A DNA stretch of 64,000 nt, taken from assembly GCA_964409875.1 (NCBI GenBank), contig CAYPEN010000003.1:557-64556 (forward strand), written 5' to 3'. The position numbers and the translations under genes were made by a program. Origin of the DNA: an uncultured Gammaproteobacteria bacterium (GTDB lineage Bacteria; Patescibacteriota; Microgenomatia; Levybacterales; GWA1-39-11). Shown piece by piece: positions 1 through 10,467 of this stretch; the stretch's first letter is position 1, and the number at the start of each line of letters is the position of its first letter. Under the pieces are notes generated by a model. It searched no databases, was not told where the DNA came from, and saw nothing but the letters and a program-made list of their open reading frames with translations.

Positions 1-714
1 GATATAATAATTCTAACGATTGAGGAAATCGACAAGATAATCAATACGAAGCTCGATTATGGTAGCCAGTATGGTAAGGATATGTCTTTTCTTGATTTTA
101 GATACAGAACTTTAGTTATGTTTTTGGCAGAAACTGGTTGTAGATATGGAGAAGCAGAAAACCTTTTAGTTAAAAGAATTGATATTAGTGCTGGAAGAGC
201 AACTTTTGTAAATACAAAAACTAACGAAAACAGAAGTGTGTATTTTACTGACCCTCTAAAATCAGACCTAGCGAAACTTATTGAAGGGAGAAAACCAAAT
301 GACCATGTATTTCGCAACTCTAAAGAAATACAGGTAAGAGCATCAGATTTCAGCCAGGATTTGAAAAGGCGAGCGAAAAAAGCTGGAGTGATGAAAAGAG
401 TACACCCACATATTTTCCGTCATTCTTATGCTACCCACATGCTAGAGACTGGAGTTCCAGAAACACAGGTCGCTTCTCTTGGAGGCTGGAAAGATATTAG
501 AACCCTTTATGAAGTATATGCGCATCTTGCAGATAGGACTTTAAGACAGGCGGCCATGAGACATCCATTGGTTAGAAAAAATATAGACCCCCGAGAAATA
601 TTAAGGATAGTAAAGGAAGGCATCGACAAGTATCATTTAGATGAAGATGGGAGATTCGATGTTAAATTGAGTGTGGGCAATAAAGGTTTATCAATAACTA
701 TTGATATCTTATGA
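1..714 (+). CDS. tyrosine recombinase / phage-type integrase, 5' end truncated by window edge (reading frame open from nt 1)
   Basis: Catalytic box II region HPHIFRHSYATHMLETG...LGGWKD...LYEVYAHL (R..HxxR..Y pattern of XerC/D-lambda Int family); earlier Arg in TGCRYGEA; frame 1 is open from position 1 to the ORF. Confidence 0.85.
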   Translation, partial: DIIILTIEEIDKIINTKLDYGSQYGKDMSFLDFRYRTLVMFLAETGCRYGEAENLLVKRIDISAGRATFVNTKTNENRSVYFTDPLKSDLAKLIEGRKPNDHVFRNSKEIQVRASDFSQDLKRRAKKAGVMKRVHPHIFRHSYATHMLETGVPETQVASLGGWKDIRTLYEVYAHLADRTLRQAAMRHPLVRKNIDPREILRIVKEGIDKYHLDEDGRFDVKLSVGNKGLSITIDIL

Positions 715-888
715 TTTTAGCCTGGAAGTCATTTTGAGAATAACTCCACAGCCTCTAACCACAAGGTGCTCAGTTCGTCATAATTCTTCGCGTGAATCCA
801 CGAATAAACAACACGTGATTTATAGCAAGGACTGGTATATGTATACTTTTCATTTTTTCTCCTCTTAAATCGCAAAATAGCGTAACTT

Positions 889-1170
889 CTAAGCACAAAT
901 TTGCTTTAAAATTTCACTGTCTAGACGAAGAGTTATAAATTCTCCGTCTTGTGTATTTTTTAACAATTTAAGTACATTTTTTTTAGCAACTTTTCTTCCA
1001 GACAACTTAGTTTGTTGAATTATGAAATGTAGGAGTGGATAGTCACCAATTACATCCCACTTTGGACTAATTCTTAAATCCTTATATATGGAAAAAAGCG
1101 TAGCTTTCCTTATAAGTGAAGTTCTAATAATAGATTTAGTAGATTGTAAATCCTGATATTTGTAATTCAT
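889..1170 (-). CDS. hypothetical protein (ORFan, island cargo)
   Basis: 93-aa ORF, co-oriented with two upstream minus-strand small genes; no recognisable motif. Confidence 0.35.
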   Translation of the reverse strand: MNYKYQDLQSTKSIIRTSLIRKATLFSIYKDLRISPKWDVIGDYPLLHFIIQQTKLSGRKVAKKNVLKLLKNTQDGEFITLRLDSEILKQICA

Positions 1171-1312
1171 AAATACTCTTACACGTGCATTAAATGCTTT
1201 TAATGCACTAAGTTAATTGTTTATTTAATGATTATATTTGTAGGAACTCAGTTTCCCTATGATAGTGAAATTTATTTCTCTATCTCCAGAAATTGATTTC
1301 TCCCCTTGCACA

Positions 1313-1630
1313 TTATTCATATACCCTTAATTGACCTAATTCATAAAGTAAACCTGTGAAGTAGTATGAATTATGTTGTGGGTGTTTACCTGCCTTTTTC
1401 CAACCAATAAGCCTGTTGTCTTTGAGCTCTTTTAGCAAATTACCGATTTGTCTCGTAGATACGCCAATATCCTTTGCAAGAGTGCTTCTACTAGGAAAAC
1501 ATCTCCCGTCAAGACCTGCATATAGCAATAGGTTCATAAGTAAAAGCCTTGCTGTGGGAGAGATATTATTATCCCTAAGCACTTCTCTTAATCCTTCAAA
1601 ACTAATTTTGTATGTTTGACCGTCTTCCAT
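1313..1630 (-). CDS. helix-turn-helix domain protein (phage/plasmid replication-regulator-like)
   Basis: SRSTLAKDIGVSTRQIGNLLKELKDNRLI is a classic HTH (wHTH) segment as in DnaD-like/HTH_36 phage proteins. Confidence 0.5.
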   Translation of the reverse strand: MEDGQTYKISFEGLREVLRDNNISPTARLLLMNLLLYAGLDGRCFPSRSTLAKDIGVSTRQIGNLLKELKDNRLIGWKKAGKHPQHNSYYFTGLLYELGQLRVYE

Positions 1631-1724
1631 AGTCTTTATACGAAAAAGGGTTCGTTTTAATGCTCATGTATTAACTTTAAGCACTAAAACGAACCAAACA
1701 ACACTTACCGAAACTACTATTTAG

Positions 1725-2033
1725 CTAGTCTTTTTTTTGTCGGTATTTTTTTCGCAAATCCTCAATAACTCTTTGTTTTTCTTTCACTGCCTCGTGCATC
1801 ACATTGTCTATTTGTGTCGCAAGTTCATTCTCTTTGGCTTTTTCTGCAAGCTCTTTCAGCCAAGAGGGAGGAACAGCAATAAACGAATTCTCAACGTTAT
1901 AAACGTGAGCATACAAAGGAAAAACGTTTCTGTTGAAATCATTTTTAATCGCGGAGGCACTGGTTTTTGTTTTTGAATTAGAAAGTGCAGAAGCACTTTT
2001 CAATTCAATCTTAATACCAGCAATAAATGACAT
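1725..2033 (-). CDS. hypothetical protein, coiled-coil C-terminus
   Basis: 102-aa ORF, first gene of a leftward operon leaving the divergent promoter region 2034-2241. Confidence 0.35.
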   Translation of the reverse strand: MSFIAGIKIELKSASALSNSKTKTSASAIKNDFNRNVFPLYAHVYNVENSFIAVPPSWLKELAEKAKENELATQIDNVMHEAVKEKQRVIEDLRKKYRQKKD

Positions 2034-2091
2034 GGAGTTAGTATACCATTACTGCGGTATGGTGTCAAGTGCCAAAATAAATCTGCCTTTT

Positions 2092-2100
2092 TGCTATAAT
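2092..2100 (+). promoter_or_regulatory. extended -10 promoter element TGcTATAAT
   Basis: TGCTATAAT at 2092-2100 in divergent intergenic region; would place TSS about 2107, upstream of the GC-rich element. Confidence 0.3.
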
Positions 2101-2139
2101 AACCTTAATTAAGTTGCCTAAACTTACAGAAATGTAGGC

Positions 2140-2243
2140 ATGGCAGAGAAACGTTCAACGCAAAGAACCCTCGTCAGGGCGCGTTGAACGTCATGTTTCC
2201 GAAAGGGGCATGGGGCCGAAAGGCCTACTGACGGGGGCTTTTT
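2140..2243 (+). promoter_or_regulatory. GC-rich structured RNA element (riboswitch-like leader or small RNA); strand not certain
   Basis: About 58% GC over 100 nt in an AT-rich genome. Stem A is 10 bp perfect: CGTTCAACGC (2152-2161) with GCGTTGAACG (2181-2190). Stem B is CCCTCGTCAG (2168-2177) with CTGACGGGGG (2228-2237), 10 bp with one G-U; it crosses stem A, giving a pseudoknot or alternative fold. Two CCGAAAGG GNRA hairpins (2199-2206, 2214-2225). A U-run follows at 2238-2243. Confidence 0.35.
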
Positions 2244-3075
2244 GATAGCCCGAGATTTAACAATGGAAATCCCAAACTGGATTAAAAGTTATTGGAAAAA
2301 AAGTAAGTTCTCCAAAGCTGTTGTTATGATACTTGCTATGATTTTATGGCCAATAACTGCAGTGATTATATGGACTTCAATAAAAGGAGTAAAAAAAGAA
2401 TGGAAGAGGAAAATTTTACAAAGTATCTTCATATTCTTATCAGTTCTTTTTTTAATAACCTGGCTAGTATTTGCACTGGGAATTGTAGTTTCAAATAAAA
2501 ATAAATCGAATGTAAGCAGTGTCAGTCCTACACCTATGCTTACTCAGCAAGGTGATTGTCTTGGGCCAGACGGGAAATGGATACAATTAAGTCCCGATGA
2601 ATGTCAGAAATTCAACGACGCATGGAAAAACCCTCCCCAACAAAACCAAGAACAAACGCAGGCACAACAACCTACATCTACACCAGTTATAAGCAAGGAA
2701 TATGACAAAAACAAAGGAAACAACTATGTAGCGGCACAGGCAGCAGAAGCTATGCAGAGCATAATAGATAAAGCCGCTGAAGGGGCAGTGTTAAATGTAT
2801 TCATTGAGCTTTCACCAGAAGACCCAAGTGGAAAAACAGAAGAAGAATATAAAGGCTCATTGACCAGTGCATTTGTACAGATTCAAGTATCTCAATCGTT
2901 CTGGAATAGCTTAACTGATGATTACAAGAAGGATTTGGTTGCAAGCTTTGTAACCAGTGTAGGAAATATTTTCCCAAGACCCTATCCTCATGTTTACGTA
3001 AACAATGGAGTACGCGAAGTAGCAACGGGAGAATACAACCTGCTTAAAAGTGAGGCTCAAGTTAAACTGAAATAG
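2242..3075 (+). CDS. membrane-anchored protein with Gln-rich linker and C-terminal extracytoplasmic domain (alternative start ATG 2263)
   Basis: Two to three N-terminal hydrophobic helices, then a QQNQEQTQAQQ linker and a 150-aa soluble domain; no known motif. Confidence 0.45.
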   Translation: MIARDLTMEIPNWIKSYWKKSKFSKAVVMILAMILWPITAVIIWTSIKGVKKEWKRKILQSIFIFLSVLFLITWLVFALGIVVSNKNKSNVSSVSPTPMLTQQGDCLGPDGKWIQLSPDECQKFNDAWKNPPQQNQEQTQAQQPTSTPVISKEYDKNKGNNYVAAQAAEAMQSIIDKAAEGAVLNVFIELSPEDPSGKTEEEYKGSLTSAFVQIQVSQSFWNSLTDDYKKDLVASFVTSVGNIFPRPYPHVYVNNGVREVATGEYNLLKSEAQVKLK

Positions 3076-3393
3076 GTTTTCGACAAGAATTTTTCCCTAT
3101 TTTTTCAAAGCGACTTTTAGGAAAACCTATAATGGCCGAGAATTGACTTCGTCTATAGTAGGTTAATCTAATAATAGAAAATCCGACCAGGCCCTATATA
3201 TACTTAGTAGAAGTTTTGAAATATAAATCAGAAACAGACATTAACTTAGTTGATTCTTATCAAATATTATAAACTCTTATGTCTTTTGATGAAAAACTAT
3301 ATAAACTTTGTATACAAAATATATACATTTATATTTTATTGATATATTTTTTCCTGAAATATCATACTCGATTTGTTAGAATAGTCGTTAAAT

Positions 3394-3957
3394 ATGGCAA
3401 AAATCTCGACAGACCACCTGTACTCGCTCAATTTTGAGTACTTAATGATGATGTTGTTTCCGAAGGGAGATAGTCCTGTTGCATCTTTTGCAGACGATGA
3501 GCAATATGTTAAAACATGGTTGAGAAAAGCAATTAAGAAGTTTATCAAAGAAGTTAACACACTCGATACAACTCAAAGACATAAAGATGTATTGATACTT
3601 CATCTTGAGAGCATAAACCGTCGATTAAACGGTGGAAACATTTGGGAGATAATTTTTGATTTATTCAACGTAATAGCTCGACTATTTGGCTACGATTATC
3701 ATAAGGGTCAAAAGCTTTTAACAGCTATATATTCAGAAACACCTTATCAACATTTTTGGAGTGGATTGCATGCGGGTGAAGACTGGAAAAAGCAAAACGG
3801 AATAAGAGAATCTTTTATCAGAAAAAGGATAGAGTTAATTAAGCAGTTGAAAAAAGATGGGTATTCGACTTTTGATATATCGCAGATATTCAATACAACT
3901 GACTACGAAATCAAGAAAATACTTAGAGAAACGAGCCGAAGTAAAAGGGAAAAGTGA
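3394..3957 (+). CDS. hypothetical protein, possible C-terminal HTH
   Basis: 187-aa ORF; the C-terminal DGYSTFDISQIFNTTDYEIKKILRE resembles a sigma region-4-like HTH (weak). Confidence 0.4.
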   Translation: MAKISTDHLYSLNFEYLMMMLFPKGDSPVASFADDEQYVKTWLRKAIKKFIKEVNTLDTTQRHKDVLILHLESINRRLNGGNIWEIIFDLFNVIARLFGYDYHKGQKLLTAIYSETPYQHFWSGLHAGEDWKKQNGIRESFIRKRIELIKQLKKDGYSTFDISQIFNTTDYEIKKILRETSRSKREK

Positions 3958-4074
3958 TGCATGGTTTCATAGCGTGAAAAGTGGAACTATAAGACACTCC
4001 ATTTTTTTATCTAGCTTCAAAACTGATTTTATGTCGCATAACTAGCTTCATTTTTATGTCTTAGAATATTTATT

Positions 4075-4581
4075 TTGCGTCATGAGATATGGTTTGATAT
4101 AGAGCTTCAAATTAAACACACATATTTAAAAAGAGCATTTGCTATAATTGAATTAATGATTGTCAATATATTAATTTCTGTAGTAGCTTATCTTGTTTTA
4201 ATGTATGTGAGCGTTAATTTACTGGGTCTTCTTGTAAGAGGCTTGTTTACAAATCCTGAACTCGATAAATTAAAAAGCGAAGGACACGAATTCATTAAAA
4301 AAGAAATTGAAAAATCCCAGCGAGCTGACAAATGGATTAATGTTTTTGCACTGATATTAATCATTGGGTATTTTTATGCGTTGTTTCATTTTTGGAATAT
4401 AGGAGTGGTTGCAGTGGCGATAATAATTATGGTGGGAAGACTACCTGATTTAGTATGGGAGATTAAACATGGGAAAAAAGTTGACCCTAATTTGATGAAG
4501 CATAATGCAATGTACTACATTACGTCTTTTTTACCATGGATTGGATTACCTCTTTTGTATTACTTTCTCTATGTAATCTAG
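4075..4581 (+). CDS. hypothetical integral membrane protein (about 4 TM)
   Basis: Hydrophobic helices IIELMIVNILISVVAYLVLMYVSV, INVFALILIIGYFYALF, GVVAVAIIIMVG, YYITSFLPWIGLPLLYYFLYVI. Confidence 0.4.
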   Translation: MRHEIWFDIELQIKHTYLKRAFAIIELMIVNILISVVAYLVLMYVSVNLLGLLVRGLFTNPELDKLKSEGHEFIKKEIEKSQRADKWINVFALILIIGYFYALFHFWNIGVVAVAIIIMVGRLPDLVWEIKHGKKVDPNLMKHNAMYYITSFLPWIGLPLLYYFLYVI

Positions 4582-4585
4582 GAGT

Positions 4586-5065
4586 ATGAGCATCGATTTA
4601 ACTAAAAGAGCAGAAAAACTTGACAATATGCGTTTGAAAGGTATGGCCGAAAAATTATCGCTAGAAGAGGCTGAAAATATTGTATCAGTTTGGGGAGTAC
4701 ATCTTGAGCATATGGGTGGTATTAGAATGCTTTTTGGGATTAGTATTCCCGAATCAATTCTGCCTTATCCAATTGTTATTCTACAGGGCGCTCTAAATAA
4801 AATGGAAGCATATTATCATGCACAAGGTATACATGATAGGGTTAAACTTCTTGAGAGTACTGAAATGGAGCTTATGCAATATACAACTGATGAAGAGGCG
4901 ATAAAGGAAGCATTAACAAATTTGGGTAATAATAAAATGAAGGATGTTTTAATTGAGGGTCTTAAAGATTATCAAAAAACCCAAATGGAAAATGGCTATT
5001 TAGTAGATAAGAGACTCTTTAAACTAAGTAAACCCCGTATAGAAGAACTTATAAAAGACATTTAG
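4586..5065 (+). CDS. hypothetical protein
   Basis: 159-aa ORF starting 5 nt after the preceding gene; no known motif. Confidence 0.4.
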   Translation: MSIDLTKRAEKLDNMRLKGMAEKLSLEEAENIVSVWGVHLEHMGGIRMLFGISIPESILPYPIVILQGALNKMEAYYHAQGIHDRVKLLESTEMELMQYTTDEEAIKEALTNLGNNKMKDVLIEGLKDYQKTQMENGYLVDKRLFKLSKPRIEELIKDI

Positions 5066-5189
5066 GAAAATTAGCTTACAGATGATGGGCGCATTTATTA
5101 GGAAAAACCGATAGATTTTGTCTCCAAGAAAAATACTCCTTAATTATTCTGAGCAGGGTGCAATTTTTGGCTTCAAAGCAGGCTATTGA

Positions 5190-5198
5190 TGTTATAAT
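5190..5198 (+). promoter_or_regulatory. extended -10 element TGtTATAAT abutting the start codon (possible leaderless transcript)
   Basis: TGTTATAAT at 5190-5198, only 6 nt before ATG 5205. Confidence 0.3.
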
Positions 5199-5204
5199 CC
5201 TGGT

Positions 5205-6278
5205 ATGCAGAAGAGGTCAATTAAGAAAGCAAAATTTAGAAGACGACAGGTAGAAAGAATATTTAAATACGAAGTCAGTAAAAGACTTTATCTAAAAAAG
5301 GCACGGTACGAAAGGCTTCCAAATAGAATTAAACAGGGCAGAGGAAGAAGATTTATAAATGATTCTAAACACGTTAAGCAGGAAATTTGTGAGGCCCCTG
5401 CTACATTTTCACTAATTGAAAATACTACAGAAGTGATATCTTATTTTGATAAAGCCAAGAAATCCCTTGCGACAGATATACCAGTCGATTTTGATTTAAG
5501 CAAGATTGTAAAAATGGGACCTGAAACCCTAACATATTTATGTGCCTTCATTAATGAAGATAAACTTACGCACAACACCGCCCTCAAGGGCAATACGCCA
5601 AAAGACCCAAAAGTAAAGGAAATGTTCCAGAAGTCAGGCTTCTATAATTTTGTGATGTTAGATTCAGTACCTGAATATTATAGCAGGGAAATTGCTGATG
5701 ATATGATTCATAGAATAACAAGGGAAAAAGTAGAGTCTGAATTGGCAGGTTTAGTTTGTAAGGCGGCTATGAAACATTCGTTTGATAGCGAGGATTTTAA
5801 AAAGCAAAACTTCTATCCAATCTTGATTGAGTGTATGGCTAACACACTGAACCATGCTAATTACATAAACAAAGAAGAAATTTATAATTGGTGGCTTCTT
5901 GCTTACAAAGAGCCTAACACAAAAATTACAAAATTTTGTTTTATTGATTTGGGAGTAGGTATATTTAGTTCGTTGGAAGATAAGTACAAAAAAAAGAAAC
6001 TGGCCGAACTATTAAAATGGTTTATTCCAAATAAACATAAGGAAACTTTAGAGAGAATATTTAAAGGTGAGAGAAGAACATCTACAAAGAACTTAAGAGG
6101 GAGAGGGCAAGGGCTTAATTACATTTATCAACTCGTTAAAAAAGATGGAACAATTAAGAATTTTACACTCATAAGTAATGATATTATTGCTAAAATCGGG
6201 TATAATACAGGGGACAAGATTGTGAAAATGAATAAAAATTTCATTGGGACAATGTATTATTGGGAAATAGCTCCGTAA
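5205..6278 (+). CDS. GHKL-superfamily ATPase (anti-sigma-factor serine-kinase-like) with basic 200-aa N-terminal extension
   Basis: Bergerat-fold motifs: N-box ECMANTLNHAN, G1 FIDLGVGI (DxGxG), G2 GRGQGLNYI (GxGxGL). The N-terminus is K/R-rich. Confidence 0.6.
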   Translation: MQKRSIKKAKFRRRQVERIFKYEVSKRLYLKKARYERLPNRIKQGRGRRFINDSKHVKQEICEAPATFSLIENTTEVISYFDKAKKSLATDIPVDFDLSKIVKMGPETLTYLCAFINEDKLTHNTALKGNTPKDPKVKEMFQKSGFYNFVMLDSVPEYYSREIADDMIHRITREKVESELAGLVCKAAMKHSFDSEDFKKQNFYPILIECMANTLNHANYINKEEIYNWWLLAYKEPNTKITKFCFIDLGVGIFSSLEDKYKKKKLAELLKWFIPNKHKETLERIFKGERRTSTKNLRGRGQGLNYIYQLVKKDGTIKNFTLISNDIIAKIGYNTGDKIVKMNKNFIGTMYYWEIAP

Positions 6279-6613
6279 TTATGAACTACACAGATATAAA
6301 AATTGCTGAAGATTTTAGTATTTACCCTGGTGCAAGATATAAGACTGATGGTAATTTCTCGGGAGAGCAGTTTTATGAAGATTTATTAAAGTCTAAACTA
6401 ACCGAAATTTGGGACGATGAGGATAAAGGAATAAGAATTGATTTTGATGGTACCTTTGGATACGCATCGTCTTTTATATCAGAAGTATTTATTAGAACCG
6501 TCAAGGATTTTAAAGACAAAAAAAAGATTAAAAAAAAGCTAGAATTTAAATCTGATGATGAGCCGTTATTAATAAAAGCGATTTTGCAAATAATAGACGA
6601 GGCAGAGGAATAG
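6260..6613 (+). CDS. STAS-like small protein (anti-sigma-antagonist-like, DUF4325-type)
   Basis: 117 aa; IRIDFDGTFGYASSFISEVF resembles the STAS phospho-serine loop (DxSGVxFxDSSGL). The start overlaps the upstream stop by 19 nt. Confidence 0.5.
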   Translation: MGNSSVIMNYTDIKIAEDFSIYPGARYKTDGNFSGEQFYEDLLKSKLTEIWDDEDKGIRIDFDGTFGYASSFISEVFIRTVKDFKDKKKIKKKLEFKSDDEPLLIKAILQIIDEAEE

Positions 6614-7200
6614 TGAGATTTAATAAAACGACATTATTAGTTATATTATGTATTTATCTCTTTGGTGTAATATCTGGGGCTTTTCTGAATGATATTCCAA
6701 ATATTACTTTTAAAAAAGAGATGTCTTTGGGTGAAACCGCAAATTTTATTTTAGCCGTATTTATTGCTATATATATACCTTTTTTCCTCGATAAGAAAAT
6801 TAATAACAAAAGAATTGAGAAGGATATCATTATACAAGCCAGTGGTAATTTAAATGGTGAATTATATGATTTAAAGAAAACAATAATTGACCCTCTTCAC
6901 GTTTCTCAAAGAATAGTTAAGCAAAGCGAGGTCAAAACTATACTAATCAGAACCAGGAGTATAAGCAATATGTTGGGCCTATTAATAAAAAATGTTAAAC
7001 CCTATGTATCAGATAAAGATATAAAGAAAATTACAGAGGAACTTGAGAATAACCAACTTACATTTTGGACAGACTTAACCTTCAATCTTAAAGACAAAAA
7101 TCCTAAAATTACACAAGAGGTCTATCTTCGAACAGAGAAAAATATAAATACTTATTCAGGGAATATATCCGCTTTGATAATGCGTATTAATGGTTTTTGA
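6613..7200 (+). CDS. membrane protein, two N-terminal TM helices plus soluble domain; GTG start overlapping the upstream stop by 1 nt
   Basis: TLLVILCIYLFGVISGAF and ANFILAVFIAIYIPFFL helices; 1-nt overlap (taGTG) indicates translational coupling. Confidence 0.5.
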   Translation: MRFNKTTLLVILCIYLFGVISGAFLNDIPNITFKKEMSLGETANFILAVFIAIYIPFFLDKKINNKRIEKDIIIQASGNLNGELYDLKKTIIDPLHVSQRIVKQSEVKTILIRTRSISNMLGLLIKNVKPYVSDKDIKKITEELENNQLTFWTDLTFNLKDKNPKITQEVYLRTEKNINTYSGNISALIMRINGF

Positions 7201-7456
7201 GTGATTTTATATTATATTGACTTCTGAATTCTAAACTGCTAAATTCATCTTGTACTTTGAAGACATAAAAACACTTTCTGTTTCAAGGAGTGTGTAATAA
7301 GTATTTGAAGCTAAAAACAAGTCCTGTCTTATAAATCCCTGCATTTCTAAGGCAAAAAAACTAGGCGGAATACTGCATGTCTGTCGCCATTTCAAGACAG
7401 AAGAATAAAATTTCTCAGATTCGATAGGATTTTGCGAAAGTGATATTATAGCTCGT

Positions 7457-8119
7457 ATGGGTATTGGAAACTTCAAGATTGTTCGCAAAAATAGAAAATC
7501 AATTGCAATTGTAATTTTGCCTACTGGACAGGTAGAAGTAAGAGCTCCAAAATTTATTCCGGAATTTGCTATCAAGGCATTTATAAAAAGCAAAAGTGAG
7601 TGGATAAAAGAAAGGCAAGAATACGTTCTTAAAAGCAAAACAGAGCCTAAAAAATTTGCCAACGGTGAAAAATTCTTATTTTTGGGAAAAGAATATTCTC
7701 TGCTGCTTGGTCCTTCACCACACATCGAAATAATCGATAGTACATTGCACTTTCCGCTAGCTCTAGCCAAGAATGGTCACAGTATGCTTGAAAAATGGTA
7801 CATAAAGCAGGCAAAACAAGTTATTAAAAATCTTGTGGAGGAATGCTCCAGGGAAATGGAATTGCCATATAATGGAATTTCATTCTCGGACACGCGATCT
7901 AAATGGGGTTCTTGTACCCCCGACAACAGATTGCAGTTCAATTGGCGACTCATTATGGCGCCCCTCCTTGTAATTCGGTACGTCGTAATACATGAATTGG
8001 TCCATACGGTTGAGAAGAATCACAAAACACTTTTTTGGAATAGAGTCCGTGCAAAAAATCCAAGTTACAAAAACCAAATTAAGTGGCTAAAAGCAAACGG
8101 CAATGCATTGAAAGTATAG
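7457..8119 (+). CDS. YgjP/DUF45-family (M48-like, SprT-like) zinc metallopeptidase
   Basis: HELVH zinc motif in VVIHELVHTVEKNH; length and layout typical of YgjP. Confidence 0.7.
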   Translation: MGIGNFKIVRKNRKSIAIVILPTGQVEVRAPKFIPEFAIKAFIKSKSEWIKERQEYVLKSKTEPKKFANGEKFLFLGKEYSLLLGPSPHIEIIDSTLHFPLALAKNGHSMLEKWYIKQAKQVIKNLVEECSREMELPYNGISFSDTRSKWGSCTPDNRLQFNWRLIMAPLLVIRYVVIHELVHTVEKNHKTLFWNRVRAKNPSYKNQIKWLKANGNALKV

Positions 8120-10308: not shown

Positions 10309-10321
10309 TACATCCCCGTCT

Positions 10322-10467
10322 GTTTTCGAAAAGTAAGCAAAGCTTGCTTTTCGAAATATTAACAATATGTTTACTTATTTTTGGAAAGTAAGCAAAGCTT
10401 GCTTTCCAATATCTACTATATGCCTACTTGTTTTCGAAAAGTGAGCCAAAGTTTGCCCCAAAATGAT
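10322..10467. repeat. three imperfect direct repeats (period 56 and 52 nt), each with hairpin AAGCAA-agc-TTGCTT
   Basis: Copies at 10322-10359, 10378-10415 and 10430-10467 (the third degenerate). Copies 1 and 2 share GTAAGCAAAGCTTGCTTT. Confidence 0.6.

Follow-up and report, generated by a model that had tools for sequence, protein, structure and literature searches.

Evidence that a small integrase-borne genomic island was inserted site-specifically at the ftsZ 3' end of a Candidatus Levybacteria genome

The 3' end of the E. coli gene icd reportedly serves the lambdoid phage 21 and the element e14 as integration site, and streptococcal integrative and conjugative elements (ICEs) and integrative and mobilizable elements (IMEs) integrate in the 3' ends of rpsI, rplL and guaA. 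P4 is a small element with an immunity exerted via an RNA from its own leader. To our knowledge, very little is known about mobile DNA in the candidate phyla radiation (CPR, or Patescibacteria). Here we describe a segment at the left end of a 64,000-nt stretch of contig CAYPEN010000003.1 (the window), which belongs to a genome of Candidatus Levybacteria (Microgenomates, CPR). We consider it very likely that this segment is a 7,840-bp integrase-borne genomic island, inserted site-specifically into the 3' end of ftsZ, between ftsZ and a YgjP-like gene.

Two public assemblies contain DNA 100% identical to the window, of which L001/L003 (run SRR11845634) reaches 7.5 kb further left. Positions below are those of the window (L003 position minus 2544), with negative positions lying to its left. 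A preliminary description of this DNA had proposed a mobile element with a truncated integrase at the window edge, a left attachment site outside the window and a YgjP-like peptidase as the first core gene at 7457. All three points stand. The leftward extension shows mraY, ftsW, murG, ftsA and ftsZ upstream of a full-length integrase gene, the start of which is 167 nt past the ftsZ stop codon. The features that define the insertion are the following (stop codons within peptides are written as 'stop').

-505 to -489, within the last ftsZ codons and left of the window: core of the left attachment site (direct repeat)
1-714, plus strand: tyrosine integrase, C-terminal 237 of 340 amino acids (aa) in the window (PF00589, E 9.4e-30)
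7324-7355, plus strand: right attachment site (direct repeat D3), with a 17-nt core at 7335-7351
7335-7364, plus strand: displaced ftsZ pseudo-tail encoding IPAFLRQKN-stop, with a stop codon directly upstream
7378-7411, plus strand: decayed third copy of the site (repeat D13), ..CTGTCGCCATTTC-AAGACAGAAGAATAAAAT
7457-8119: YgjP-like gene (E 3.2e-54)

A repeat search of the extended locus found the direct repeat that had been expected to match the right end: 38 nt, 82% identical, pairing the last 13 ftsZ codons with window 7326-7363. Both copies contain the identical 17-nt core ATCCCTGCATTTCTAAG, at -505 to -489 and at 7335-7351, with a spacing of 7,840 bp; the attL junction reads ..GTCTTTGACATCCCTGCATTTCTAAGACAGAAGAATTAAATAATTAG.. 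and the attR junction ..CTGTCTTATAAATCCCTGCATTTCTAAGGCAAAAAAACTAGGCGGAA.. The ftsZ-side copy translates as ..VFDIPAFLRQKN-stop and the distal copy as VL-stop-IPAFLRQKN-stop, with a stop codon immediately before the tail. The codons that follow the core in the distal copy (AGG CAA AAA AAC TAG) differ from those of ftsZ. Such a near-duplicate tail with different codons and an upstream stop is the signature of an element integrating within the 3' end of a gene. Both copies encode IPAFLRQKN-stop, the conserved C-terminal peptide of FtsZ, and the element therefore brings a replacement tail: it supplies its own last ftsZ codons, leaves the FtsZ protein unchanged and displaces the old tail to its far end. 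A direct target repeat at both ends together with an integrase gene adjoining one of them is the arrangement that characterizes site-specific integrative elements. That a tyrosine recombinase integrated the segment at the ftsZ 3' end is well supported, with a confidence that we place high.

A tRNA or tmRNA gene, suggested earlier as the likely target at the left flank, was found neither in the window nor in the extended contig. Such a gene is thus ruled out as the integration target, which is the 3' end of ftsZ. No further integrase and no further FtsZ tail were found elsewhere in the window.

Presence or absence of the segment in related genomes, proposed in the preliminary description as a check, points the same way. 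In a relative with a 94% identical FtsZ, the order mraY-ftsW-murG-ftsA-ftsZ is followed by YgjP 77 nt on, with no island in between, and the genes beyond YgjP (pseudouridine synthase, acyltransferase, DUF4258 and PD-(D/E)XK) are those that flank the island in the window. In another relative, with a 90% identical FtsZ, YgjP starts 37 nt past ftsZ. In these close relatives ftsZ and YgjP are direct neighbors and the 7.8-kb segment is absent; an uninterrupted target site of this kind is expected of a site-specific integrative element. A congener (L152, FtsZ about 90% identical) contains a different element of 7.5 kb in the same gap between ftsZ and YgjP, with its own tail duplication. The L152 integrase is just 39% identical to that of the window and its cargo is unrelated apart from a homolog of one 102-aa gene. 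In a further relative with a 91% identical FtsZ (L153, 1462-1900), two ftsZ tails lie 403 bp apart around a single open reading frame (ORF) of 91 aa, and what they enclose may be the last remnant of an element or else an insertion of very small size. Further into the flank of the window, between the acyltransferase gene and the DUF4258-like gene, is a tandem repeat (10321-10456; 53-nt unit, 2.5 copies, 79% match).

One metagenomic sample bears on strain polymorphism. In sample SRR11845619 the element forms a separate contig of 7,901 nt, which opens with a 30-mer ending ..GACATCCC and closes with the 30-mer GCATTTCTAAGGCAAAAAAACTAGGCGGAA; the YgjP-side contig starts with this second 30-mer. The contigs of the element and of its two flanks break around a single T of the core, at a distance of exactly one base on each side. 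Such breaks are expected in a k=31 graph if a path joins ftsZ to 7341-7370 via another base. This path would represent a co-occurring strain that lacks the element and differs at precisely that base, where the empty-site relative L146 has C. The predicted empty site reads ..GTCTTTGACATCCC[N]GCATTTCTAAGGCAAAAAAACTAGGCGGAA..

The right attachment site consists of an element-side arm CTGTCTTATAAAT (7324-7336), a putative 6-bp overlap CCCTGC (7337-7342) and a right arm ATTTCTAAGGCAA (7343-7355). When the distal element-side arm is combined with the right arm from ftsZ, the attP obtained is CTGTCTTATAAAT-CCCTGC-ATTTCTAAGACAG, with a predicted circular junction ..CCTGTCTTATAAATCCCTGCATTTCTAAGACAGAAGAATTAAATAATTAG.. 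The 13-nt arms of this attP form a 12/13 inverted repeat around the 6-bp spacer. Dyad symmetry of 9-11/13 recurs in 7 of the 8 sibling elements that still carry an integrase, L020 having 7/13, against a chance expectation of about 3-4. Recombination would thus occur at a 13-6-13 core site with strand exchange within the CCCTGC spacer. Arm-type repeats common to both element ends amount to one inverted 9-mer, which is unconvincing. At position 7340, within the putative overlap, the window has T whereas the empty-site relative L146 has C, a synonymous difference (CCT versus CCC for proline) that could affect whether a strain can be colonized.

The right boundary, previously placed in 7200-7456, does fall within that interval and is narrowed to 7335-7364, the functional boundary of the element. 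Beyond it, the segment 7378-7411 resembles the native ftsZ end of L146 (..GCATTTCTAAGACAGAAGAACTAAATTTT). We read this segment as a relic of an earlier insertion together with the original host tail, outside the present element. The decayed third copy would be explained by at least one earlier insertion, so that the site would have been struck at least once before the present element arrived; the tail at 7352-7364 would have been supplied by the earlier element, later lost, and 7378-7411 would be the original host tail. The inverted repeat CTGTC(N10)GACAG that had been noticed near the boundary is indeed present (7381-7400), but it lies within this decayed earlier site and not in the present element.

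The integrase gene starts 309 nt left of the window (full gene L003 2236-3258, 340 aa). The fragment within the window scores 104.1 bits against PF00589 (curated cut-off 27.1), and the full protein matches phrog_1 (integrase) with an E value of 3e-49. All catalytic residues are present (R151, K176, H240, R243, W266 and Y276), and these positions are invariant across six relatives, except 266. We considered the possibility that the segment is not mobile, the recombinase being a housekeeping Xer-type enzyme and the genes being ancestral to the division-gene neighborhood. The integrase does show similarity to the NCBIfam equivalogs XerA (118 bits, cut-off 220), XerD (103, cut-off 330) and XerC (89, cut-off 335), and the G+C content is host-like (0.336 for the element, 0.354 for the remaining window, and 0.325-0.396 across 7.8-kb windows). 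However, the Xer scores are all far under the curated cut-offs and the gene is missing from the same locus in close relatives, which is not the behavior of a Xer dimer-resolution recombinase. The closest relatives also have none of the segment, contradicting ancestral presence, the ftsZ tail is duplicated at both ends, and the cargo differs in every genome. A non-mobile origin is hardly credible.

To place this insertion among others, we used 80 loci around ftsZ from GTDB species representatives. An integrase gene directly follows ftsZ in 5 GTDB genomes (54-63% identical to that of the window; one cut at the contig end, 38% over the fragment), and duplicated or triplicated ..IPAFLR..-stop tails are found in 11 of the 80 loci, 0.9-7.8 kb downstream. 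Metagenomes scanned with six aligned integrases yielded 52 loci, 46 of them with enough flanking sequence. In 40 of these 46, an FtsZ tail lies beside the integrase gene (upstream on the same strand in 33, in other orientations in 7). Complete small elements at the ftsZ site measure 4.5-9.4 kb and have cargo that is nearly all different from one element to the next, while the layout of an integrase, a divergent regulatory region and no structural genes recurs in at least 10 independent genomes. Other genomes hold remnants at the site, with 0.4-3.7 kb between tail copies and no integrase. Tailed prophages that encode a terminase, a portal protein, a protease and a major capsid protein use the same site as well, and their integrases are 41-42% identical to that of the window.

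L141 9995-20954: tailed prophage right after ftsZ, Microgenomates-like host, ftsZ tail ..FDIPTFLRKK-stop
L143 271-11228: tailed prophage right after ftsZ, Microgenomates-like host, ftsZ tail ..FDIPTFLRKK-stop

On the viral contig L085 (1-15585; IMG/VR UViG_3300027835_000014), a 5.9-kb element of the window's integrase clade stands in tandem with a prophage at one ftsZ-tail site. This prophage has its own integrase, 25% identical, and siphovirus-type tail genes. Another element of the clade has a match to the DUF3800-V RNA (L121 1718-1862, plus strand; 38.1 bits, gathering score 37.4).

A Pfam census covered 94 proteins located between ftsZ-tail copies. Defense-type families comprise AAA_15, SocA/Panacea, Ltp, NucS_C and HATPase_c_3. 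Metabolic genes comprise SOR/SNZ with SNO, peptide deformylase, dihydroorotate dehydrogenase, aminotransferase and radical SAM among others, and genes for pyridoxal phosphate synthase and peptide deformylase are among those lying between duplicated ftsZ tails. Tail-bounded stretches without an integrase were seen in L012, L019, L022, L023, L024, L028, L032 and L040. These integrase-less stretches probably account for the metabolic families, which are not assigned per locus.

The preliminary description had left the choice between a prophage remnant and an integrative island, and only the second half of that proposal stands. None of the 11 proteins has a PHROG or Pfam match to structural, lysis or packaging genes, in a search that does detect structural genes in L141 and L085. 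The terminase, portal, capsid, tail and lysis genes by which a tailed prophage is recognized were not seen in the element, and a prophage remnant is therefore unsupported. In such a scenario, the integrase and a few accessory genes would be the residue of a prophage at the ftsZ site that was once complete and then lost its structural genes. Prophages do integrate at this site, clear integrase-less remnants of 0.4-3.7 kb are found there in other genomes, and the cassette family described below is also present in a prophage. But no fragment of a structural, lysis or packaging gene was found, the reconstructed attP is 12/13 symmetric, and contig ends suggest presence/absence polymorphism in one sample. 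We regard decay from a prophage as decidedly unlikely, since the integrase is still intact, the two 17-nt cores agree at every position, and siblings of similar size with intact integrases recur.

The island could instead be a phage satellite, the 5-9 kb ftsZ elements being helper-dependent, silenced by their regulators or by an RNA of the LOOT family, and packaged by the CPR prophages that use the same site. Their size and layout (4.5-9.4 kb) recur in at least 10 independent genomes, related integrases (42% identical) are found in true tailed prophages at the site, one IMG/VR contig has a small element and a prophage in tandem, and LOOT RNA is found in viral contigs as well. The window's element has an integrase and a divergent regulatory region, with four genes without assignment, but no primase, replicase, packaging, capsid-remodeling or small-terminase gene was recognized in it. 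Moreover, cargo is nearly all different between elements, no helper was identified in this genome window, and tandem occupancy of a hot spot is no proof of dependence. We consider a satellite unlikely, and continue with the reading of an integrase-borne island.

Within the island, three genes run leftward and an RNA leader precedes a rightward operon.

889-1170, minus strand: 93-aa protein, last of the leftward set (ORF and gene call)
1313-1630, minus strand: 105-aa winged-helix protein of the HTH_36 family (PF13730, E 3.7e-14)
1725-2033, minus strand: 102-aa protein, first of the leftward set (homolog in L152)
2040-2068, minus strand: promoter-like site of the leftward genes, TTGACA-17-TATACT with extended -10 TG (consensus match only)
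2105-2247, plus strand: LOOT RNA (RF03000; Rfam match 2115-2226) and conserved 3' extension ending in a U-run

The leftward set with its helix-turn-helix (HTH) protein is as first described, and it is probably regulatory. The 93-aa protein has no Pfam, PHROG, NCBIfam or PADLOC match. The 102-aa protein is part of the element backbone, with a homolog that is 43% identical (E 2.5e-18) at the same position in the L152 element. The HTH_36 protein matches PHROG replication-initiator families over residues 10-90 only (E 1.7e-10). It resembles just the N-terminal DNA-binding domain of initiators and is therefore probably the regulator of the element.

This similarity also bears on whether the island is an integrated plasmid or mobilizable element, a small circle with the HTH_36 protein as its initiator, spread by mobilization or natural DNA uptake. 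CPR bacteria are thought to use natural DNA uptake. The match to the DNA-binding domain of phage and plasmid initiators, the plasmid-like size and the occurrence of the cassette family on a Leptospira plasmid would fit. However, the HTH_36 protein has merely 105 aa and is without the catalytic or helicase-loading part of an initiator. No relaxase, oriT-type, partition or replicase family was matched, no relaxase, coupling protein or type IV secretion gene had a match in Pfam, NCBIfam or PHROGs, and the cassette alone matches the plasmid collection. We hold a plasmid origin to be unlikely, and the integrase-borne island remains our reading.

The gap at 2034-2241, earlier called a divergent promoter region, is intergenic and carries a leftward promoter-like site (2068-2040); what the earlier account had missed is that it holds an RNA gene, LOOT. 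The leftward site is an 11/12 sigma-70-like match, the best of the region, where the total of promoter-like matches is not above chance. A site with the same hexamers and spacing (TTGACA-17-TATACT with TG) lies in front of the integrase gene at L003 2146-2174 (plus strand), left of the window. An inverted repeat ATTAGCAG..CTGCTAAT, which may be an operator, coincides in part with the integrase promoter-like site.

The LOOT motif is catalogued as Rfam RF03000 with function unknown, and the main text of its source is without discussion of it (Weinberg et al., 2017; PMC5737381). In the window, LOOT scores 72.3 bits (gathering score 46.4) over model positions 1-121 of 121 and lies within the gap as the leader of the rightward operon, with TGCTATAAT at 2092-2100 as a possible promoter. 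We found LOOT in four sibling elements at the ftsZ site (L008 13451-13592; L049 15942-16095; L020 14743-14883, minus strand; L106 13966-14117) and, using a covariance model built in this analysis, nowhere else in about 2.1 Mb of loci examined. It always lies past the integrase gene, at a distance of 1.4-3 kb, and shares its strand with the operon diverging from the leftward genes; it ends 13-35 nt ahead of the first ORF, which differs between elements.

In the alignment of the LOOT sequences, which comprises only five and is fitted to the model, 97% of cells are paired and 15 pairs have compensatory changes, a value reached by 0 of 500 shuffles; the fold z-score is -3.8. Pairing is possible between the 3' extension CUGRCGGRGRGCUUUUUG and the apical 5' strand of the long hairpin. 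It would give a helix of 14 pairs, all formed in the five sequences, and four with compensatory change in the same model-fitted alignment. Since this pairing is incompatible with the local apical hairpin and ends in a U-run, LOOT would be a cis leader, most likely controlling read-through into the rightward operon.

LOOT was also seen in two IMG/VR viral contigs (L155 7852-7981, minus strand; L156 4386-4511, plus strand). One of these copies is upstream of a gene for a 594-aa DNA methyltransferase-like protein. The other is borderline (47.1 bits, gathering score 46.4), on a contig with a large terminase, a ParB-methyltransferase and a serine integrase.

The rightward operon consists of four little-known genes, two of them encoding membrane proteins, followed by a three-gene cassette.

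2242-3075, plus strand: membrane-anchored protein (277 aa from TTG 2242, 270 aa from ATG 2263)
3394-3957, plus strand: 187-aa protein (170 aa from 3445 by the public gene call), possible C-terminal HTH
4075-4581, plus strand: 168-aa hydrophobic protein, probably with several membrane helices (ORF and translation)
4586-5065, plus strand: 159-aa protein (ORF)
5205-6278, plus strand: 357-aa GHKL-type ATPase, cassette gene 1 (motifs, fold; phrog_3364, E 2e-28)
6260-6613, plus strand: 117-aa STAS-like DUF4325 protein, cassette gene 2 (PF14213, E 4.5e-9)
6613-7200, plus strand: 195-aa protein with two N-terminal membrane helices, cassette gene 3 (homologs in L088, L090 and L092)
Cassette occurrences: window 5205-7200; L088 6001-7964; L090 6001-7939; L092 6001-7977; L150 3992-5820; L151 4049-5623

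We count seven convincing rightward genes up to 7200, where eight had been proposed. Nor is the cargo entirely ORFan, as had been claimed: it contains a DUF4325 protein, a GHKL ATPase, a conserved cassette and the 277-aa protein, which has 95 cluster representatives at E<=1e-3. These representatives chiefly match residues 130-277, and homologs occur in three other elements at the ftsZ site. In the 277-aa protein, two helices are predicted at the N-terminus, and a linker rich in Pro and Gln leads to a conserved alpha/beta domain at the C-terminus. Its AlphaFold2 (AF2) model has a predicted local distance difference test score (pLDDT) of 82 and weak fold matches to CamS sex-pheromone lipoprotein domains (E 1e-2, prob 0.98), a model-based likeness that may serve as a lead and not as an assignment. 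The only match of the 187-aa protein is a weak one, in PHROGs, to a DNA-binding protein of HTH type (E 7e-4, residues 126-179). The 168-aa protein has no significant match in Pfam, PHROGs or NCBIfam, and the 159-aa protein none in Pfam, PADLOC, PHROGs or NCBIfam, nor by tblastn in the phage and plasmid collections. When the concatenated cargo was compared with these collections, the cassette alone matched.

The first cassette protein has no Pfam match. Its motifs E209..N213, D248xGxG252 and R300GxG303 are invariant in 31 homologs. Among the best PDB matches listed for its AF2 model (pLDDT 88), nearly all are GHKL proteins (TopoVI-B, CheA P4, SpoIIAB prob 0.99), with weak E values of 2e-3 to 1e-1. 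The N box, the G1 motif DxGxG, the G2 motif GxG and the Bergerat fold of the GHKL ATPase superfamily are all found, the fold with weak E values. The DUF4325 gene overlaps the ATPase gene by 19 nt and follows it in every other genome with the cassette; the protein has the conserved motif D63-G..G-Y-x-S70-S71-F. DUF4325 has hardly been studied; in the literature searched, it receives passing mentions only.

The cassette recurs across several phyla, with a third protein of the two-helix membrane type in most cases. In L088, L090 and L092, homologs of the third protein (192-197 aa, 22-37% identical, with two hydrophobic stretches at the N-terminus) are encoded after the DUF4325 gene, and the cassettes adjoin restriction-modification systems, an RHS toxin, a HicB antitoxin or an ABC ATPase. 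The ATPase-DUF4325 pair is also found on a Leptospira plasmid and in a Helicobacter prophage, followed there by a shorter hypothetical protein (134-166 aa) as a putative third member. PADLOC-DB 2.0 gave no credible match for the cargo proteins, for the three cassette proteins of the window or for the cassette homologs. Its absence from PADLOC and its neighbors elsewhere make the cassette a candidate for an undescribed defense or switch module, and our best guess from these neighbors is an accessory defense or exclusion module.

Several points weigh against our interpretation of the segment and its parts. No excisionase, relaxase, replicase or capsid gene was recognized in Pfam, PHROGs or NCBIfam, and the host-like G+C gives no compositional anomaly. 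Excision is at most predicted, and the presence/absence polymorphism in SRR11845619, with a co-occurring element-free strain, is suggested indirectly, by contig ends only. A degenerate pattern for the free attP matched, in IMG/VR, only an already known integrated contig, and a degenerate pattern for the empty ftsZ junction had no match in Joint Genome Institute (JGI) metagenomes. The putative overlap and its arms were deduced from the symmetry of the sequence, and the roles proposed for LOOT and the cassette rest on position and neighbors.

A more far-reaching hypothesis can be formulated, in which the codons of the FtsZ C-terminal peptide would be the dedicated site of a whole Microgenomates integrase clade, comprising prophages and satellite- or plasmid-like parasites of 5-9 kb. 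LOOT would be the switch of these parasites, a cis-acting leader whose alternative pairing would set whether the cargo operon is transcribed, the cassette an undescribed three-gene defense system with an effector of two transmembrane (2-TM) helices, and the C/T difference in the overlap would decide which strains can be colonized. We think it unlikely that this hypothesis holds as a whole, and our reading stays with the integrase-borne island at ftsZ.

This island has several implications. It provides a simple sequence rule, in which a second ..IPAFLR..-stop tail downstream of ftsZ flags islands, prophages and remnants in Microgenomates and ties viral contigs to Microgenomates hosts. CPR bacteria are hard to manipulate genetically, and the integrase with its putative 13-6-13 site is a candidate integration tool. 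The orphan LOOT family gains a biological home as part of an element backbone and leader of the main operon, which makes its function testable. An uncharacterized cassette of an ATPase, a STAS-like protein and a membrane protein is found to travel on islands, plasmids and prophages in several phyla. Finally, the ftsZ hot spot may be one route by which reduced CPR genomes gain genes and fix useful functions.

Compared with known systems, the cassette resembles the SpoIIAB-SpoIIAA and RsbW-RsbV pairs in having a gene for a GHKL-fold ATPase followed by a small STAS-like gene, with SpoIIAB among the best predicted fold matches. The D..G..SS motif of DUF4325 presumably sits where partner-switching STAS proteins have their phosphorylated serine region, and serines 70 and 71 are conserved. 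In contrast to those pairs, the ATPase is extended by 190 aa at its N-terminus, a 2-TM protein takes the place of a sigma factor as third partner, and the cassette, which encodes no PP2C phosphatase, is located on mobile elements and beside restriction or toxin genes; any kinase activity is putative. The LOOT RNA of the window agrees with RF03000 as catalogued in its full-length match well over the gathering score. It differs in its setting within ftsZ-integrating elements, as an operon leader, and in its extra conserved 3' strand.

Islands at tRNA or tmRNA genes and P4 have in common with the present island that the integrase lies at one end, that a short identical core restores the target gene, and that islands accrete in tandem at a hot spot. 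The CI RNA from the P4 leader may be an analog of LOOT, the two being likened by position only. Here, however, there is no tRNA or tmRNA gene, and no primase or helper-exploitation genes were recognized. As in streptococcal ICEs and IMEs, the conserved 3' end of a coding sequence serves as a site across species and variable cargo lies behind a conserved integrase module; unlike in those elements, there is no relaxase, coupling protein or conjugation gene, and both the phylum and the target are others.

A similar choice of site is that of phage 21 and e14 at icd, where a tyrosine integrase likewise acts at the 3' end of a protein-coding gene, bringing a near-copy of the last codons and leaving a displaced pseudo-3' end. 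Different here are the target (the ftsZ C-terminal peptide), the CPR host, the absence of phage structural genes, the serial insertions at the site and the several integrase lineages that use it. A literature search on ftsZ as an attachment site and on CPR prophages and integrases returned nothing relevant, and large island catalogs may already list such ftsZ cases without describing them. Taken together, the island follows the classic mechanism known from phage 21 and e14, which use icd, and from tRNA-gene islands, and what is new, as far as the literature was searched, is the coding target in the FtsZ peptide, a whole CPR integrase clade with insertion arrays, the link to LOOT and the three-gene cassette.

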